Origin: Bacilli bacterium
GTDB lineage: Bacteria; Bacillota_I; Bacilli_A; RF39; UBA660
Length of the DNA stretch: 64,000 nt
Direction of reading: 5' to 3'
Assembly: GCA_900768345.1 (NCBI GenBank)
Contig: CAAGCO010000009.1
Span: forward strand, 11,080-75,079
Shown: positions 28,731-36,850 of the stretch, piece by piece
Layout: every line of letters starts with the position of its first letter
How positions within the stretch are numbered: position 1 is the stretch's first letter
Notes under the pieces: model-generated
Databases searched by the model: none
What the model saw: the letters and a program-made list of their open reading frames with translations, nothing else
What the model was told of the DNA's origin: nothing
Made by a program: the position numbers and the translations under genes

Positions 28731-29199
28731 ATGAAAAAGAAAGGTTTTACATTAGTTGAGTTATTAGCAGTTATAGCAATTTTAGCAATACTAGTAATAA
28801 TAGCTTTACCTAATGTAATAAATATGTATAATAACGCTAAAAAACAAGTTTTCTTAACAGAAGCACAAACGGTCGCATCAACATCAGAAAAGAAGTTTTT
28901 ATCTAATAGTATATCTGGTGCTACAAAAGAATCAGTTTATTGTAAAAGCAAAACTGACGAAAAAAATCCATTAGAGATGACAGGAGCTAAAAAATATTAT
29001 TATGTTGAATTAGGTAATGATGGTAAAAAAAAATTTAATTATTTGGAACGACCAAAAATATATTAAATATGTAGCAGATGGTTCAAAAGAAGTAAGTAAT
29101 CTAACAGTAGATGAGATAGTAGAAAGAGATAATAATAACTTCACGTGTGGAAATGTACTAACAGAAATAGGAGTAAAAGATGAAACAACACACCACTAG
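28731..29199 (+). pseudogene. Type IV pilin-like (prepilin-type N-terminus) gene interrupted at an A9 tract
   Basis: MKKKGFTLVELLAVIAILAIL is a class III signal with Gly-Phe cleavage and Glu at +5. The frame breaks at A9 (29025-29033). The +1 frame continues as NLIIWNDQKYIKYVADGS... to TAG at 29199. Confidence 0.7.
29025..29033 (+). repeat. Poly(A)9 homopolymer at the pilin frameshift site
   Basis: Read directly from the sequence. Removing one A joins the two frames into a 155-aa ORF. Confidence 0.95.
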
Positions 29200-29675
29200 A
29201 TAAAAATGTAAATAATTTAAAAAACACAACTTGGGTACTAGATGATAATTACACATTCTCTTTAACATCAGTTATTCTTGAAGATGGCACAACATCTTCT
29301 GCTAACAAATTAGTTGATTTAAAAGAAGCAAATATAAATTTTACTTCTAATGGTAGAAAATTTGTGGGAATAACATCACTATATCTACCATTTGATGAAC
29401 CAGGCGTAAATCTTGAAATATCATGTTTCGGATTTAAAGTATCTTTCTCAGATACATTTAATAAAATAGACTTTCCATTCGGAGAAAAATTAAAAAGTCA
29501 AAACGGTGTTATAATGTATGGTATATCAGAAAGCAAAGGAGTATATGTACCATATTATCAAAAAAGTGGATGGTATAGTGATAATTATAAAACTATAGAA
29601 ATAACAGGTGGAACTGATACTACAAAAACAGAAGTTATAAATTGGTTTAAGAAACATGGAACAAGAATTAAATAG
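29184..29675 (+). CDS. Hypothetical protein; ORF open for 60 codons upstream of its first usable start
   Basis: The frame is open from 29184, but the first ATG/GTG/TTG is GTG at 29364. An ATG with an AGGAG RBS at 29180 lies in a different frame. This may be a second frameshift. Confidence 0.4.
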   Translation, partial: NNTPLDKNVNNLKNTTWVLDDNYTFSLTSVILEDGTTSSANKLVDLKEANINFTSNGRKFVGITSLYLPFDEPGVNLEISCFGFKVSFSDTFNKIDFPFGEKLKSQNGVIMYGISESKGVYVPYYQKSGWYSDNYKTIEITGGTDTTKTEVINWFKKHGTRIK

Positions 29676-29769: not shown

Positions 29770-31830
29770 ATGTTAAACAAAAAGTTAATAGTTAAACAAA
29801 ATGGTTTTAAAGATTGTGGCCCTTCATGTTTATTATCTATAATGAAATATTATGGATTTGAGGCCTCACATGAAGAAGTTACTTTCACTCTTAAAACCAC
29901 AGTAGATGGAACTAATGCATATAACATAATAAATGGAAGTAGATTATATGGATTTGATGGTTATGGAATACATTATACATACGAAGAAATAATAAATTCA
30001 GAAATATCTTTCCCTATAATATGTCATGTTATTAAAAATAATATGTACCATTTCATAGTAGTATACAAAGTAAATAAGAATTCTTTAACTATAATGGATC
30101 CAGGAAGTAATATAACTAAAATATCATTTGATGAATTTAAAAAAATATATCAAGAAACTTCTTTAGTTATATATCCAGTAAAGAAAGCAAATAATTTGAT
30201 TAATAAAGATAAGTTATTAGATGTAATAAAAGATTATTTAGGAATCGAAAAAAAGAATTTAATAATTATTATATCCACCTCTATATTACTTATAATATTT
30301 AGCATATTAATTAATTATTTTACGCTTATATTAATAGATTATATATTACCAAATTATAATTATAATCTATTGATAAAAATAACTATTTCATTTTTGATAA
30401 CATCTATAATAAAAAATATTATTAATTATATAAGGGGTAAATTAATAATAAATGTAAATTCTAGATTTACTATTAACTTAAATAATAATATTATTAGAAA
30501 ACTTTTTAATCTTCCTTATCAATTCTTCAAAAACAAATCTACTCCTGAAGTAATATCTAGAATAAATGATTTAAAAGAATTTAAAGATAGTTTTTCTGAA
30601 ATAATAATAAATATATCTACTAATATATTATTAGTATTTATAAGCTTTATATTACTTTTAAAAATAAATATAAAACTGTTTATAATTTATATTATTGAAA
30701 TAATTATTTACATATTGTTAACTTTGATATATAAGAATAAAAATAATAAATATATAGATGAAATACTAATAAATGAATCTAACTATAATAAGACATTAAA
30801 TGATAGTATATATAGTTATGAAATAAATAAAAACCTCAACCTAAACAACAGTACATTAAAGAATATAGAAATATCTTATATTAAAAATGACTTTTCTCAT
30901 AAAAAATATGACCATTTAATAAATTTTCAAGTTTTATTAAAAGAGTTGGTAAGTAATTTAACTTATATAACTTCTTTATTTATAAGTACTATTTTAATAC
31001 ATAAAAATATTATAACACTTGGAAATTTCTTATTATTTAATTCACTTATATATTATTTTACTGAACCATTAAAAAGTATATTAGAGTTAGAACCAAATAT
31101 TAATTATTTAAAAAATATATATAGAAGAATTAATGATTTGTTATTAGTATCAACTGAAGAATCAATAAAGACTGATAAAATTATATCAGGCGATATAATC
31201 TTTAAGAATTTATCATATATGATTAATGATAAAGAACTTTTTAATAACGTATCTTTCAAAATTAAATATGGAAGTAAGTTTTTAATACATGGTAACAGTG
31301 GAAATGGAAAAAGTACAATTATAAAAATACTATTAAAATATTTAAATGATTATAAAGGTAATATTTATATTGATAATAAAAATATAAAAGATATTGATTC
31401 TAATATTATATCTAATAGTATGACTTATGTATCGCAAAATAATTTTATATTGAATGATACTCTTAAAAACAACATTATTTATGGAAGAAAAGTAAATGAT
31501 GAAGAATATGAGAGAGTAATTCATATTTGTAATTTAGATACTTTAAGAAATAATAATAAATTAAGAAATAATATGATTATAGAAGAAGATGGTTTTAATA
31601 TATCAGGTGGAGAGAGACAAAAAATTATTTTAGCAAGAAGTATTTTAAAGGATAGTGAATTTATAATTCTAGATGAAGCACTAAGTGAAGTAGGTATAGA
31701 AGAAGAAAAAGAAATAATTAAAAAACTATTTAAATATTTTAAAGAAAAAACAATTATTTATATTTCTCATAAACAAGAAATTATTAATTTGTTTAATGAA
31801 AAATATAAATTAGAAAGGAGTAAGGCTTAA
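29770..31830 (+). CDS. Peptidase C39-domain ABC exporter (bacteriocin-processing PCAT)
   Basis: N-terminal QNGFKDCGPSCL (catalytic Cys) with His and Asp downstream, 6 TM helices, Walker A GNSGNGKST and signature SGGERQK. Confidence 0.9.
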   Translation: MLNKKLIVKQNGFKDCGPSCLLSIMKYYGFEASHEEVTFTLKTTVDGTNAYNIINGSRLYGFDGYGIHYTYEEIINSEISFPIICHVIKNNMYHFIVVYKVNKNSLTIMDPGSNITKISFDEFKKIYQETSLVIYPVKKANNLINKDKLLDVIKDYLGIEKKNLIIIISTSILLIIFSILINYFTLILIDYILPNYNYNLLIKITISFLITSIIKNIINYIRGKLIINVNSRFTINLNNNIIRKLFNLPYQFFKNKSTPEVISRINDLKEFKDSFSEIIINISTNILLVFISFILLLKINIKLFIIYIIEIIIYILLTLIYKNKNNKYIDEILINESNYNKTLNDSIYSYEINKNLNLNNSTLKNIEISYIKNDFSHKKYDHLINFQVLLKELVSNLTYITSLFISTILIHKNIITLGNFLLFNSLIYYFTEPLKSILELEPNINYLKNIYRRINDLLLVSTEESIKTDKIISGDIIFKNLSYMINDKELFNNVSFKIKYGSKFLIHGNSGNGKSTIIKILLKYLNDYKGNIYIDNKNIKDIDSNIISNSMTYVSQNNFILNDTLKNNIIYGRKVNDEEYERVIHICNLDTLRNNNKLRNNMIIEEDGFNISGGERQKIILARSILKDSEFIILDEALSEVGIEEEKEIIKKLFKYFKEKTIIYISHKQEIINLFNEKYKLERSKA

Positions 31831-31967
31831 TGCAAAAAGAAGAACTAATTAATATTAAAGGAGGTGCAAATTGGGTAGCTTTAGGAATTGGATCAACATT
31901 AGTGTCATTTCTAATTGGTTTAGTAGATGGTTATTTAAGACCTTTAAAATGTAACAAATGGAAATAA
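31830..31967 (+). CDS. Double-glycine-leader peptide A (candidate class II bacteriocin subunit)
   Basis: MQKEELINIKGG|ANWVALGIGSTLVSFLIGLVDGYLRPLKCNKWK. The ATG overlaps the exporter stop as TAATG, with AAAGGAG upstream. Confidence 0.7.
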   Translation: MQKEELINIKGGANWVALGIGSTLVSFLIGLVDGYLRPLKCNKWK

Positions 31968-32116
31968 ATGAATTAAAAGAAATAAAAGGAGGTGCCATAT
32001 CTGGTACTATCATAAATGCTATAGTAAGATCAGTTACTTTAGCATTAGAATTAGGACGTAGTCTTGGTTCAGCACTAAGAAGAGCAAAAGATAAGAAAAA
32101 ATGTAAATATAGTTAG
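31958..32116 (+). CDS. Double-glycine-leader peptide B (candidate class II bacteriocin subunit)
   Basis: MEINELKEIKGG|AISGTIINAIVRSVTLALELGRSLGSALRRAKDKKKCKYS. It overlaps peptide A by 10 nt and has no obvious SD, so translation is probably coupled. Confidence 0.65.
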   Translation: MEINELKEIKGGAISGTIINAIVRSVTLALELGRSLGSALRRAKDKKKCKYS

Positions 32117-32136
32117 CGAGAGCTAACTATATTTTT
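32109..32136 (+). terminator. Rho-independent terminator after the peptide genes
   Basis: atagttagc-gaga-gctaactat followed by ATTTTTG. Confidence 0.7.
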
Positions 32137-32215: not shown

Positions 32216-32368
32216 ATGAAACGATATAATGGTATGAATGATGTTATTTTCAAAAATACATTTTACATTGAAAAAAATAAAGATTTACTTAAGTGGTTAA
32301 TTGAAAGTTGCTTAGATATGAATATAGATGAAATAGAATTAAAACTTAAAGAACTAAATAGTAAATAG
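32216..32368 (+). pseudogene. 50-codon remnant resembling the N-terminus of Rpn / PD-(D/E)XK-type putative transposase-nucleases
   Basis: MKRYNGMNDVIFKNTFYIEKNKDLLKWLIESCL fits the NDxxFKxxF...NKxxLxxxL N-terminal pattern of that family as I recall it. The nuclease core is missing. Confidence 0.4.
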
Positions 32369-32494: not shown

Positions 32495-32938
32495 ATGAAA
32501 GATAAAAGTATTAGTTTAGAAATTAAAAAAATTGATAGTTTAATTGTAAGAAAAATAATGGCATATAATAAAGATGCAATTTATCATCTTACTCCAGTAC
32601 AAATAGTTGTAATAAAGTATTTGATAAAGAATAAGGATAGTGTAGTGTATCAAAAAGATATAGAAAAGAAACTAGGCCTTAGAAAGTCAACAGTATCAGG
32701 AATTCTTGGTACAATGATAAAAAACGGTATTATCACAAGAACTGACTCTACAAATGATTTAAGAAGTAAAGAAATTAGATTAACTGAAACCGGATATAAG
32801 CTTGATAAGGCAATGAGAAAAAAAGCATTTGAATTTGAAAAACTATTACAAAGTAATATAAGTAAAGAAGATTTAGAAGTTTTCTATAAAGTAACTAAAC
32901 AAATACAAGAAAATTTAGAAGGAGAAAAGATATGTTAA
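32495..32938 (+). CDS. MarR-family transcriptional regulator
   Basis: 147 aa with a winged-HTH pattern (LTPVQIVVIKYL...RKSTVSGILGTMIKNGIITR). Confidence 0.85.
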   Translation: MKDKSISLEIKKIDSLIVRKIMAYNKDAIYHLTPVQIVVIKYLIKNKDSVVYQKDIEKKLGLRKSTVSGILGTMIKNGIITRTDSTNDLRSKEIRLTETGYKLDKAMRKKAFEFEKLLQSNISKEDLEVFYKVTKQIQENLEGEKIC

Positions 32939-34686
32939 AATTATTTAAAAACTTAGAAAAAAAAGACTGGATATATGTATTTATAAGTATTATATTTATA
33001 GTTTTACAAGTTTGGCTAGAACTTAAAATACCAGATTATATGAGTAAAATTACTGAGCTTGTACAATTAAATGGAACTGTAAAAGAAATATTAGTGCAAG
33101 GTGGATTTATGCTTGGATGTGCATTACTTAGTTTTGCGTCATCTGTAGTAGTAGGTTATATTATTGCAAATCTAGCATCTAACTTTTCAAAGAATATTCG
33201 TGAAAAGTTGTTCAACAAAGTTCAAAGTTTCAGTATGGAAGAAATTAAAAAATTCCAAACTAGTAGTCTTATCACAAGAACAACAAATGATATAGGAAAT
33301 GTTGAAATGATGCTTACATTTGGACTTCAAATGATAATTAAAGCACCAATAACAGCAGTATGGGCAATTGGTAAGATTTTAGGAAAGAGTTTTGAATGGA
33401 CTGCAATAACAGGAGGAGCAGTACTTGTGTTACTTGTAATGGTAATAACACTTATGATTATAGTTTTACCAAGATTCAAAATTGTACAAAAATTAATTGA
33501 TAGTGTAAATGGTTTAACTAGAGAAAACCTAAAAGGCATTAGAGTAGTAAGAGCATTTAATGCTGAAAAATATCAAGAAGATAAGTTTGAAAAAACTAAT
33601 AAAAAACTTACTAATACTCAACTATTTAATCAAAAAGTTATGAGTTTAATGTCACCAATGATGTATTTAATAATGAATGGTGTATCACTTAGTATATATT
33701 TTGTAGGAGCATCACTAATTAATGAAGCACTACTTGCAGATAAAATAACATTATTTAGTAATATGGTAGTATTTAGTAGTTATGCTATGCAAGTAATAAT
33801 GTCATTCTTGATGTTAGCAATGATATTTATAATGTATCCAAGAGCATCTATATCAGCGGATAGAATTAACGAAGTATTACATACTAAAACTAAAATAAGA
33901 GATGGAAAAGAAACTAGATCATCAGAAATTGGAACAATAGAATTCAAAAATGTTTCTTTCAAATATCCTGATTCAGATGAATATGTTTTAGAAGATATTT
34001 CATTTAAAGTATCAAAAGGTGAAACTATCGCAATAATAGGTTCAACTGGTAGTGGTAAAAGTACATTAATCAATTTAATTCCAAGATTCTATGATGTAAC
34101 AGAAGGAAAAGTATTAGTTGATGGAATAGATGTAAGAAACTATACTTTAGATGCTTTACACGATAGACTTGGATATGTACCTCAAAGAGCAGTAATGTTC
34201 AGTGGAAGTGTAAACTATAATGTAGGATATGGCTCTAAAACTAACTATGAAGTAACAAAAGACAAAATAAAAGAAGCAATAAAAGTTGCTCAAGCAGAAG
34301 AATTTGTAGAAAAAATGCCACAAAAATGTGAATCAGCAATAGCACAAGGTGGGACAAACGTATCAGGTGGGCAAAAACAAAGATTAAGTATAGCAAGAGC
34401 TATTGCAAGAGACCCTGAAATATATATATTTGATGATTCATTTAGTGCTCTAGATTATAAAACAGATTATATACTTAGGAAAGAATTAAAAAGTTACACT
34501 AAAGATGCAACAAGTGTAATCGTAGCGCAAAGAATAGGTACTATAAAAAATGCTGATAAAATAATAGTTCTTGAGAAAGGTAAATGTGTAGGAATGGGAA
34601 CACATAAAGAATTATTAAAAAATTGTGAAGTATACAAAGAAATAGCATATTCACAATTATCAAAGGAGGAACTTGAAAATGAATAA
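32932..34686 (+). CDS. ABC exporter half-transporter (permease + ATPase)
   Basis: 6 TM helices, Walker A GSTGSGKST and signature SGGQKQR. Overlaps the marR stop. Confidence 0.9.
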   Translation: MLKLFKNLEKKDWIYVFISIIFIVLQVWLELKIPDYMSKITELVQLNGTVKEILVQGGFMLGCALLSFASSVVVGYIIANLASNFSKNIREKLFNKVQSFSMEEIKKFQTSSLITRTTNDIGNVEMMLTFGLQMIIKAPITAVWAIGKILGKSFEWTAITGGAVLVLLVMVITLMIIVLPRFKIVQKLIDSVNGLTRENLKGIRVVRAFNAEKYQEDKFEKTNKKLTNTQLFNQKVMSLMSPMMYLIMNGVSLSIYFVGASLINEALLADKITLFSNMVVFSSYAMQVIMSFLMLAMIFIMYPRASISADRINEVLHTKTKIRDGKETRSSEIGTIEFKNVSFKYPDSDEYVLEDISFKVSKGETIAIIGSTGSGKSTLINLIPRFYDVTEGKVLVDGIDVRNYTLDALHDRLGYVPQRAVMFSGSVNYNVGYGSKTNYEVTKDKIKEAIKVAQAEEFVEKMPQKCESAIAQGGTNVSGGQKQRLSIARAIARDPEIYIFDDSFSALDYKTDYILRKELKSYTKDATSVIVAQRIGTIKNADKIIVLEKGKCVGMGTHKELLKNCEVYKEIAYSQLSKEELENE

Positions 34687-36850
34687 CAAAAAAGAAAATA
34701 AAACTCCAAGAAGAATGCATGGTCCAGGAGGAAGAGGTCCAGGCGAAAAACCAAAAGACTTTAAAAAAGCACTAACAAAGTTGAATAAATATTTAAAACC
34801 ATATAGAAATTTAATTGTTATTGCAGTAATACTTTCTGCATTAAGTAGTGTTTTATCAATCATAGGTCCAAATAAAATAAAAGATTTAACAAATGAAATT
34901 CAACAAGGATTAATAGTTAATAAATCTAATATAGAATTATTAGTACAAGATATACAAAATGATATAAAACAAAATATAGTTTTAAATGAAACTGATTTAG
35001 AATCACTAACAAATGAAGATAAAACAAGATATTATGAAGTTTTATCTAAAATGAACACTAGTAAAAATAAAGAAAATCTTATAACACAATTACCTGAAAG
35101 TGTAAAATTATTAATATTTAAAGATACAACTATCGAAGGAACAATAATAACAAATAAAGACAAAGTACAGTTCGTTAATATAATGAGTAATGCTGACATG
35201 AATGAACCAACAAAAATGTATAAAGATTTTGATAAATTATCAAAGAATGTTAATGAATTAATTAAACCAAAAATGAATTTAGATAAAATAAAAGATATTA
35301 CTATATTCTTAGTATGTATTTATTTGATAAGTGCAATATTTAGTTATTTTGAAAGTGTTTTAATGGTAGTAGCAGCAAACAATTTTGCTAAAAGTCTAAG
35401 AACAAAAATATCTAAAAAGATAAATAAGTTACCACTTAAATATTTTGATAAAAATAGTTATGGAGATATATTATCAAGAGTAACAAATGATGTCGATACT
35501 ATAAATATGTCACTTCAAAATAGTTTAAGTACTTTAGTAGGTGCTGTATCATTATTTATAGGATGCATCATAATGATGTTTGTAACTAATTATATAATGG
35601 CTATTACTTGTATATTATCATCATTATTTGGTTTTGCATTTATGGGAATAATTCTTAGTAAATCTCAAAAATATTTTAATCAAAGACAAGTAGAATTAGG
35701 TAATCTAAACGGACATATAGAAGAAATATATAGTTCACATAATGTAGTTAAAGCATATAATGGAGAAAAAGAATCATTAGAAAAATTCAATAGTTTAAAT
35801 AAAAAAGTTTATGATTGTAATAGAAAGAGTCAATTCTTATCCGGATTAATGCCACCAATGATGGGATTCATTGGAAACTTTAGTTATGTGGCTGTATGTA
35901 TAGTTGGTGCTGTTCTTACATTAAAAGGAAATACAACATTTGGTACAATAGTAGCATTTATGATATATGTAAGATTATTTACAAGTCCACTTTCACAAAT
36001 AGCTCAAAGTATGACACAACTTCAAACGGCAAGTGCTGCTTCAGAAAGAGTGTTTGAATTCATTGAAGAAGCTGAAATGAAAGATGAAAGTAATCTAACA
36101 GGAGTTTTAGATCCTAAAAAAGTAAAAGGTAATATTGACTTTGAACATGTTAAATTTGGTTATGATAACGATAAAATTATAATCAAAGACTTTAATTGTA
36201 ATGTTAAACCTGGCCAAAAAGTAGCAATAGTAGGTCCTACAGGTGCTGGAAAAACTACTATCGTAAATCTTCTTATGAAATTCTATGAAATAAATAATGG
36301 AGACATTAAAATAGACGGAATGAGTATTAATAATCTTACAAGAGAAAATATTCATGACTTATTTATAATGGTTCTTCAAGATACTTGGCTATTTGAAGGA
36401 ACAATAAGAGATAACATTAAATTTAATAAAGATGATGTTAGTGATAAAGAAATATGGGAAGCATTAAAAGTAGTAGGCGTAGATCATTTTGTAAAATCAC
36501 TTCCTAAAACATTAGATTATAAAATGGAAGATAACGAGTCAATTTCAGCAGGACAAAAACAACTATTGACAATAGCTCGTGGTATGATAGAAGATGCTCC
36601 ATTCTTAATACTAGATGAAGCTACTTCATCAGTAGATACTAGAACAGAAGAACTAGTGCAAAAAGCAATGGATAAACTTACCGAAGGAAGAACATCATTC
36701 ATAATCGCACATAGACTTTCAACAATCAAAAATGCAGACATTATACTAGTTATGAAAGATGGTAATATTATAGAAACAGGTTCACATGATGAATTAATGA
36801 AGAAAAATGGTTTCTATGCAGAACTTTACAATTCACAATTTCAAAATTAA
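34679..36850 (+). CDS. ABC exporter half-transporter with large TM1-TM2 extracytoplasmic insertion
   Basis: The ATG lies 9 nt after AGGAGG; the track's TTG at 34673 is less likely. N-terminal HGPGGRGPGEKPKDF, Walker A GPTGAGKTT and signature SAGQKQL. Probable heterodimer partner of the upstream gene. Confidence 0.9.
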   Translation: MNNKKENKTPRRMHGPGGRGPGEKPKDFKKALTKLNKYLKPYRNLIVIAVILSALSSVLSIIGPNKIKDLTNEIQQGLIVNKSNIELLVQDIQNDIKQNIVLNETDLESLTNEDKTRYYEVLSKMNTSKNKENLITQLPESVKLLIFKDTTIEGTIITNKDKVQFVNIMSNADMNEPTKMYKDFDKLSKNVNELIKPKMNLDKIKDITIFLVCIYLISAIFSYFESVLMVVAANNFAKSLRTKISKKINKLPLKYFDKNSYGDILSRVTNDVDTINMSLQNSLSTLVGAVSLFIGCIIMMFVTNYIMAITCILSSLFGFAFMGIILSKSQKYFNQRQVELGNLNGHIEEIYSSHNVVKAYNGEKESLEKFNSLNKKVYDCNRKSQFLSGLMPPMMGFIGNFSYVAVCIVGAVLTLKGNTTFGTIVAFMIYVRLFTSPLSQIAQSMTQLQTASAASERVFEFIEEAEMKDESNLTGVLDPKKVKGNIDFEHVKFGYDNDKIIIKDFNCNVKPGQKVAIVGPTGAGKTTIVNLLMKFYEINNGDIKIDGMSINNLTRENIHDLFIMVLQDTWLFEGTIRDNIKFNKDDVSDKEIWEALKVVGVDHFVKSLPKTLDYKMEDNESISAGQKQLLTIARGMIEDAPFLILDEATSSVDTRTEELVQKAMDKLTEGRTSFIIAHRLSTIKNADIILVMKDGNIIETGSHDELMKKNGFYAELYNSQFQN

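Follow-up and report, generated by a model that had tools for sequence, protein, structure and literature searches.

The exporter and the two small genes

The window analysed here is a stretch of 64,000 nucleotides (nt) from contig CAAGCO010000009.1 of a Bacilli bacterium (assembly GCA_900768345.1), with a G+C content of 27.4%. It contains a compact cassette in which an ATP-binding cassette (ABC) exporter with a C39 peptidase domain is followed by two small genes, A and B, each encoding a peptide with a double-glycine leader. An earlier reading of the DNA that made no database searches (the sequence-only reading) had proposed A and B as a candidate two-peptide bacteriocin. The features of the cassette are as follows.

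29770–31830, forward strand: exporter with C39 peptidase domain (PCAT/AMS type), 686 residues, from Pfam/NCBIfam domains and PDB alignment
31816–31820, forward strand: Shine-Dalgarno sequence AGGAG, 9 nt upstream of the ATG of A, read from the sequence
31830–31865, forward strand: leader of peptide A, MQKEELINIKGG, 12 residues, from the motif and the invariant positions in 21 orthologues
31866–31967, forward strand: mature peptide A, 33 residues, and stop codon; G18xxxG22, then YLRP-LK-C29, from alignment and AlphaFold2
31958–31993, forward strand: leader of peptide B, MEINELKEIKGG, 12 residues, starting within the 10-nt overlap with the 3′ end of A, from sequence and alignment
31994–32116, forward strand: mature peptide B, 40 residues, and stop codon; G21xxxG25, RR, basic tail and C37, from alignment and AlphaFold2
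32105–32134, no strand assigned: hairpin with a 13-bp stem and a loop of 4 nt, which overlaps B at its stop codon and has a T run after it, from a terminator scan

The open reading frame (ORF) of A, at 31830–31967, encodes 45 residues that read MQKEELINIKGG followed by ANWVALGIGSTLVSFLIGLVDGYLRPLKCNKWK, and the ORF of B, at 31958–32116, encodes 52 residues that read MEINELKEIKGG followed by AISGTIINAIVRSVTLALELGRSLGSALRRAKDKKKCKYS; the predicted cleavage point lies between the two parts in each case. Re-reading the DNA returns the positions, the sequences and the 10-nt overlap of A and B as they had first been given. The TAA stop codon of the exporter shares its last base with the ATG of A (TAATG, a 1-nt overlap), and the overlaps along the cassette suggest translational coupling. 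For B itself, no obvious Shine-Dalgarno sequence can be seen in the DNA, so it is probably translated by coupling to A. The terminator expected after B is present as a hairpin and T run, with bounds that differ slightly from the 32109–32136 proposed earlier, and is likely to be the end of the operon; two terminator-like sites occur in the region, against 0.3 expected from shuffled sequences. A promoter scan of the region gives 49 sites against 46 expected, which is no signal in such AT-rich DNA. In close relatives, the upstream boundary of the cassette is marked by a hairpin and by a conserved stretch of about 60 nt that precedes the exporter start and within which no promoter can be assigned.

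The two small genes had been described as unannotated. Public gene calls and the NCBI records of metagenome-assembled genomes (MAGs) already list both as hypothetical proteins. The public gene calls include 16 homologues of A and 11 of B. In four of them (P0017, P0019, P0021 and P0022), B is extended past its TAG stop with a Gln at the stop position, probably because the gene callers applied a TAG-recoded code to short contigs; the extension looks conserved because of the terminator hairpin.

The exporter has an N-terminal C39 domain with a catalytic Cys, followed by an ABC membrane domain and a nucleotide-binding domain, the architecture of the PCAT/AMS exporters, whose membrane domain has six helices. 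All three Pfam matches are above threshold (Peptidase_C39 1e-27, ABC_membrane 1e-25, ABC_tran 2e-24), and the protein has recognisable Walker A, signature and Walker B motifs. Its best PDB matches over the full length are ComA of Streptococcus pneumoniae (8hf4) and PCAT1 of Clostridium thermocellum (4ry2), at E-values of about 1e-75; the architecture is the same throughout and the catalytic Cys, His and Asp are aligned. Since C16, H94 and D110 fall on the DCG, HYYVV and ADP motifs of ComA, the peptidase domain is of the active type and is no C39-like dummy domain. The three Pfam domains and the aligned catalytic residues bear out the earlier assignment of a C39 ABC exporter upstream of the peptides, and the exporter is predicted to cleave the leaders and to export both peptides. 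It scores below the cut-off of two narrower NCBIfam models, TIGR01193 (339.7 bits, cut-off 523.85) and NF045998, the mycoplasma Mbov_0121 family (287.3 bits, cut-off 500). Unlike in the ComA setting, no gene for a ComB/HlyD-type partner adjoins the exporter.

Both leaders have Met at position −12, Glu at −8, Leu at −7, Ile at −4 and Gly at −2 and −1, so that the consensus and the 12-residue length noted from the sequence at first are present in both. The Glu, the Leu and the two Gly residues of the A leader are invariant in 21 orthologues. The pattern L/M(−12), E(−8), L(−7), I/V(−4), GG is shared with the substrates of ComA and PCAT1. ComA recognises Leu(−12)-x3-Glu(−8)-Leu(−7), the residues at −4, −7 and −12 fill a hydrophobic groove in the LahT150 co-crystal, and a leader cut back to its last 13–14 residues is still a good substrate (PMC6363468); on these data, a 12-residue leader is essentially the minimal recognition element. 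Class IIb leaders have 15–30 residues (PMC2850506), and a leader of 12, although shorter than this range, is plausibly workable. When the window is scanned in all six frames with the strict pattern M-x2-14-[ED][LM]-x2-[IVL]-x-GG, A and B are the only matches.

The mature parts of the two peptides differ in character. In A, a 19-residue stretch has a mean Kyte-Doolittle value of 1.79 and a low hydrophobic moment, and the net charge is +3. An AlphaFold2 model from a small family alignment is one long helix from residue 3 to residue 42 (mean pLDDT 73.5), and mature A (predicted average mass 3633.3 Da) is thus modelled as a hydrophobic helix of the transmembrane type, not an amphipathic one. The model of B, made in the same way, is one long helix from residue 3 to residue 48 (mean pLDDT 84.3). 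With a hydrophobic moment of 0.46–0.61 and a net charge of +7, mature B (predicted average mass 4289.1 Da) is modelled as a cationic amphipathic helix. The sequence-only reading had called both mature parts cationic and amphipathic; this description fits B, while A is cationic and transmembrane-like.

Each mature peptide contains one GxxxG motif (GLVDG in A and GRSLG in B) and a single Cys (codons 31950–31952 in A and 32102–32104 in B), as had been noted from the sequence. Nine precursor positions of A, E5, G11, G12, F27, G30, D33, G34, P38 and C41, are invariant in 21 species-level sequences, giving the core motif F-x2-G-x2-D-G-Y-x-R-P-x2-C. In B, G12, G33, G37, R42 and C49 are invariant, ELGR-x2-G-x3-RR is nearly so, and the core motif is G-x3-G-x3-RR-x6-C. 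The mature cores of both peptides are conserved at least as well as the leaders, and their invariant positions include the glycines of GxxxG and the Cys. A reading of the Cys as part of a CaaX-like prenylation site or a lipobox was rejected, since it stands at anything from 0 to 3 residues from the C terminus and the cassette has no linked modification enzyme.

Conservation and pairing of the peptides

Conservation was assessed from an alignment of the exporter, and not of the peptides, in one genome per species (185,579 species). The search yields 30 orthologous loci (L010–L039) with exporters 33–97% identical to that of the window, in uncultured gut MAGs labelled "Bacilli", "Mollicutes", "Mycoplasmatota" or "Clostridium sp.". 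Five loci are not evaluable (the contig of L025 ends inside A and those of four others inside the exporter). In all 25 loci with readable downstream sequence, the exporter is followed by A and then by B, even where the exporter is only 33% identical. Syntenic relatives in which the two frames are not conserved, which would have spoken against the earlier proposal, are not seen among these 25. In the window and most relatives, the genes overlap or their stop and start codons adjoin.

The ratio of nonsynonymous to synonymous differences (pN/pS), taken from the closest informative pairs because synonymous sites are saturated at larger distances, is 0.17–0.24 for A and 0.28–0.34 for B against close relatives. 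These low values indicate that both frames are coding and under purifying selection. The reading of A and B as unexpressed chance frames starts from the base composition of the window, in which short ORFs are frequent, and from the missing Shine-Dalgarno sequence of B. It is contradicted by the conservation of both frames in 25 species-level genomes and hundreds of metagenomic clusters, by the low pN/pS at low divergence, by the absence of the leader motif elsewhere in the window, and by the AGGAG sequence before A with B placed for coupling to it. Chance frames are extremely improbable, and the conservation data effectively exclude them.

Homologues of B extend well beyond the exporter-seeded loci. 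A profile search of 1.84 billion representative proteins finds 327 clusters at 50% identity (E ≤ 0.001), and a second search finds 656 clusters at 90% identity. Statistics were taken from the best 149 representatives, 145 of which have a recognisable leader. In these 145, the leaders are mostly 12–15 residues long and the mature parts 37–41, and the usual net charge is +3 to +5. All 145 have a Cys, 127 of them exactly one, and it stands exactly 16 residues after the first Gly of GxxxG in 137 of the 143 representatives with that motif. None of the proteins has a Pfam domain. The few that have a name are called "hypothetical protein" or, once, "bacteriocin-like protein"; the only named organism is Candidatus Aphodocola (Bacilli incertae sedis), and the distant homologues are all metagenomic.

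Several features suggest that A and B act as a pair. The strict order of A and B is also kept in five loci reached through distant B homologues (L072 and L074–L077), and each peptide has its one invariant Cys at a fixed register from GxxxG. The net charges of the two tails around the Cys co-vary, with a Spearman coefficient of 0.86 over 33 pairs that is not corrected for phylogeny and probably reflects few independent changes. Both tails are basic in most lineages, including the group of the window, and both are acidic in L021, L024, L026 and L028; co-variation of the same sign suggests that the tails share an environment or a partner rather than attract each other. It is common for several unrelated double-glycine peptides to lie behind one exporter, and A and B could on this precedent be two independent one-peptide bacteriocins of a class IId-like kind that share an exporter without forming an obligate pair. 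A third double-glycine peptide between A and B in some relatives, and B without a detectable A nearby in two loci (L070 and L071), fit such independence. Strict co-occurrence in the exporter-seeded and the five distant loci, gene overlaps that suggest coupled translation, the co-varying tail charges and the fixed position of the Cys in each peptide argue for pairing, and independent peptides are an improbable explanation.

The third peptide, found in one species group (L001–L004 and L020, for example L001 8168–8335), has 55 residues that read MIKEKELISILGG-TFSIYNIADNVIRIIKPLGNIIGFNDIVIRKNKGKSGRKLLY; it matches the B profile weakly (7–24 bits) and has no Cys. In L070 and L071 (5001–6300), where neither A nor an exporter is detectable, the B homologue lies between prophage-like genes (DUF859, an M23 peptidase and, on the opposite strand, a Cys-rich protein of 159 residues) and rpsU, and a prophage insertion may have split the cassette. 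Natural A-B fusions were considered as a proxy for a complex and dropped, as the three candidates (P0197, P0062 and P0028) are frameshifts, read-through calls or assembly chimeras.

Comparison with class IIb bacteriocins and other families

The class IIb bacteriocins lactococcin G, enterocin 1071 and plantaricin EF/JK likewise consist of two different small peptides encoded next to each other in one operon. The hallmarks of the class are adjacent genes, double-glycine leaders, a dedicated ABC transporter and GxxxG motifs (PMC2850506). A and B resemble it in their leaders and their dedicated C39 ABC transporter, both known here from sequence alone, and in mature peptides of 33 and 40 residues that are predicted helical and cationic with a GxxxG in each. 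The G18xxxG22 of A even has the same numbering as the GxxxG of lactococcin G-beta (PMC2850506). The balance of the evidence leans slightly towards the pair being a two-peptide bacteriocin like those of class IIb, with sequences of a new family. Of the earlier proposal, what stands is a real, conserved pair of double-glycine genes behind an intact C39 exporter; membership of a known class IIb sequence family is not supported for the peptides of the window.

If A and B are such a bacteriocin, the single operon would make the two precursors in roughly equal amounts. The N-terminal C39 cysteine peptidase of the exporter would recognise the 12-residue leaders and cut after the two glycines, and the ABC part would push mature A and mature B out of the cell. 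In the membrane of the target, the hydrophobic helix A and the amphipathic helix B would pack side by side through their GxxxG motifs. The C-terminal Cys residues would be held in register, possibly in an inter-peptide disulfide (predicted heterodimer mass 7920.4 Da), and the pair would permeabilise or poison competing Gram-positive cells, as in the class IIb mechanism. The sequences themselves show real, paired genes, leader motifs, an intact peptidase triad, conserved motifs and predicted helices; cleavage, export, the 1:1 complex, the disulfide and the killing activity are inferred.

The cassette also differs from class IIb in several respects. Its leaders are shorter, each of the two peptides has one invariant C-terminal Cys where the class IIb review makes no mention of cysteine (PMC2850506), and no class IIb model is matched by the mature sequences. 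An immunity gene is always part of a class IIb operon (PMC2850506), and the A/B cassette of the window has neither an immunity nor an accessory gene. The locus moreover lies on the chromosome, keeps its synteny and has been passed on vertically in many species of uncultured gut Bacilli.

A number of observations weigh against the bacteriocin reading, and the first of them come from the family models. B matches no bacteriocin model, as precursor or as mature peptide, and has no named family in the libraries searched, and mature A alone has no family-model match at E ≤ 10. Since the leader with the first ten mature residues of A accounts for about 14 bits, most of the family signal of A lies in the leader. 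The profile searches suggested with the earlier proposal give weak class IIb matches for A, all of them below the cut-off for the peptide of the window: NF038034 (lactococcin G-beta/enterocin 1071B) 20.8 bits against 37, PF11632 (LcnG-beta) 15.8 against 29.4, TIGR03949 (lactobin A/cerein 7B) 15.5 against 21.5, and PF10439 (Bacteriocin_IIc) 15.2 against a gathering threshold of 27.1. Across the A family, the weak matches speak for the class IIb reading: TIGR03949 is matched at E ≤ 1 by 17 of 21 A orthologues (best 1.1e-5), in a match that is largely leader, and its cut-off is barely exceeded by two of ten orthologues scanned singly (22.8 and 21.8 bits). NF038034 is matched at E ≤ 1 by 15 of 21 (best 2.1e-6), and even the best, with 27.8 bits, is below the cut-off. 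What the A-family precursors share with TIGR03949 and with NF038034/PF11632 is a double-glycine leader followed by a Gly-rich hydrophobic stretch; the matches stop at about precursor residue 34–38, before the Cys, and the DGY-x-R-P-x-x-C end of A lies outside them. Filing the peptides under lactococcin G or cerein 7B was therefore rejected, the matches of precursors, mature peptides and leaders alone in Pfam and NCBIfam being mainly sub-threshold and driven by the leader.

Against the PDB sequences, the A profile finds no lactococcin G chain and nothing else, and the B profile finds only designed repeat proteins and FANCI fragments, judged to be chance matches. Sporadic weak matches to the ComC model occur among the family leaders. 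The ComC/BlpC pheromones are likewise short double-glycine peptides exported by a C39 ABC transporter. Unlike these, A and B have no linked histidine kinase or response regulator, and their mature parts of 33–40 residues are highly conserved helices of a membrane type, whereas ComC and BlpC are short and hypervariable.

By sequence comparison, the system is of a known kind (double-glycine peptides, a C39 exporter and a two-peptide architecture) and the sequence family is new: the hundreds of B clusters form an orphan family, and A lies at best on the fringe of TIGR03949. A full-text literature search with the core sequence strings of A and B found no paper. The IIBacFinder study mines ORFs adjacent to C39 genes in about 280,000 gut genomes, and its main text contains neither these strings nor the host lineage (PMC12648112). 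Bulk catalogues of that type may list the peptides without comment. In a limited literature search, no class II bacteriocin made of two disulfide-linked peptides came to light.

Inheritance, self-protection and possible roles

The remaining points against a bacteriocin concern inheritance, self-protection and the disulfide. Most bacteriocin loci are patchy and mobile, and deep vertical conservation at a housekeeping locus, as found here, is atypical for them. The cassette occupies a conserved site between rpe and rpsU-yqfC-yqfD in uncultured gut Bacilli, and as the exporters become less identical to that of the window, the flanking RsgA and Rpe do so in parallel, a pattern that vertical descent predicts. 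Searches for B in 72,556 plasmids, 50,697 phage genomes and the IMG/VR viral contigs gave no match, and an origin on a mobile element was rejected on these grounds. The operon contains no immunity gene, as no ORF lies between B and the terminator, and in the minimal loci L017 (rpe-exporter-A-B-yabP), L074 and L076 (exporter-A-B-rpsU) there is no room for one. An extracellular disulfide may also not be stable in the gut where the producers live.

The absence of immunity, accessory and two-component genes noted in the sequence-only reading holds for the window and its close relatives, and has to be qualified for distant lineages. There, a second type of cassette (L036, L072, L073, L075 and partly L077) carries two extra small genes that the lineage of the window lacks. 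Its order is exporter, a protein of 138–151 residues with one N-terminal membrane helix, A and B; in L036, L072, L073 and L075, and not in L077, B is followed by a peptide of 54–57 residues with a membrane helix and no double-glycine leader (L036 8054–8959, L072 5400–6323, L075 4409–5323, L077 4419–4835). No Pfam family is matched by either protein, and their positions make the two genes candidates for accessory and immunity functions. In the two sequences of the 54–57-residue peptide that were read (L036 and L072), the C-terminal half resembles B (G-x-Y-x-G-x-F-x-R ... C), and in a larger ancestral cassette such a membrane-anchored, B-like peptide ending in Cys could have served as a decoy-type immunity factor.

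At 32495–36850, on the 3′ side of the cassette, lie a gene for a MarR regulator and two half-transporter genes with ABC_membrane and ABC_tran domains. They are also present in about half of the relatives and absent from L017, L031, L074 and L076, where yabP or rpsU directly follows B. These genes are an alternative candidate for self-protection.

Bacteriocins do not typically show deep vertical conservation or go without an immunity gene, so a role other than antagonism has to be weighed. A and B could be a conserved pair exported for a physiological purpose of the producer itself, as a cell-cell signal or a modulator of its own membrane or envelope, perhaps in development or sporulation; no immunity gene would then be needed. 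Such a role agrees with the deep vertical conservation of the cassette at rpsU-yqfC(yabP)-yqfD-ybeY-dgkA-era-recO with exporters about 33–60% identical, with purifying selection on the mature cores and their near-invariant motifs, with three-gene cassettes that have no immunity gene, and with the lack of B on plasmids, phages and viral contigs. It is harder to reconcile with the absence of any linked sensor kinase, response regulator or other receptor gene from the window and every related locus examined. A transmembrane-type helix of 33 residues and an amphipathic helix of 40 residues with a charge of +7 resemble a membrane-active agent and not a typical pheromone, the position directly behind B, where immunity genes are usually located, is taken by a small membrane peptide in the more distant cassettes, and the neighbourhood of sporulation genes may be no more than an ancient insertion site. 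We regard a physiological role as a real but minority possibility. Somewhat more doubtful still is the further idea that A and B are an ancient, vertically inherited and exporter-dependent pair with a conserved function that acts through its invariant Cys residues, either as an A-S-S-B heterodimer or by a thiol-dependent interaction with a target, with no dedicated immunity protein. If true, it would imply a mode of action or of self-protection for which class II bacteriocins offer no described precedent.

The producers are uncultured Bacilli with small genomes of low G+C content, common in the guts of humans and animals, and to our knowledge almost nothing is known of their interactions with their neighbours. 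Few secreted-effector systems can be recognised in these Bacilli, and the cassette, conserved in dozens of species and in sequence clusters numbering in the hundreds, is one of them. As a bacteriocin, the pair would add a new sequence family to class IIb, would test whether an immunity gene is truly obligatory, and would be, as far as the limited literature search showed, the first two-peptide bacteriocin of class II with a candidate disulfide link between its peptides. If it is no weapon, it would be a conserved pair of exported peptides with an undescribed physiological role in a major gut lineage that is uncultured. The small size of the peptides permits their synthesis, which makes the question directly testable either way.

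Genes around the cassette

The gene order in the window is rlmN-PP2C-PknB-RsgA-Rpe, a variable stretch, exporter-A-B, a PDDEXK remnant, MarR-ABC-ABC and YabP(YqfC)-YqfD-VanZ-YbeY-DgkA-Cdd. Relatives keep this frame, with insertions and deletions on both sides of the cassette. The barest form is that of L017, Rpe-exporter-A-B-YabP-YqfD, and the distant loci L074 and L076, reached through B, have exporter-A-B-rpsU-YabP-YqfD-VanZ-YbeY-DgkA-Era-RecO.

On the 3′ side, the 50-residue ORF at 32216–32368 is the N-terminal remnant of a PD-(D/E)XK_2 (Rpn/transposase-like) gene that is intact in L005, L007, L010 and L013 (ORFs of 281–309 residues); about 700 bp of it are deleted in the window. On the 5′ side, the interval between rpe and the exporter is hypervariable among relatives, with DUF6273 proteins in L005 and L006. 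The closest relative, L010, has four large pilin-like genes upstream of its exporter, and the 684-residue gene adjacent to that exporter is missing from the window. Three short ORFs at 28731–29675 in the window (111, 60 and 103 residues), the first with a prepilin N-terminal methylation motif, jointly align at 92.8% over 970 nt with a single intact pilin-like gene of 318 residues in L010, and are therefore a frameshifted pseudogene or contain sequencing errors.

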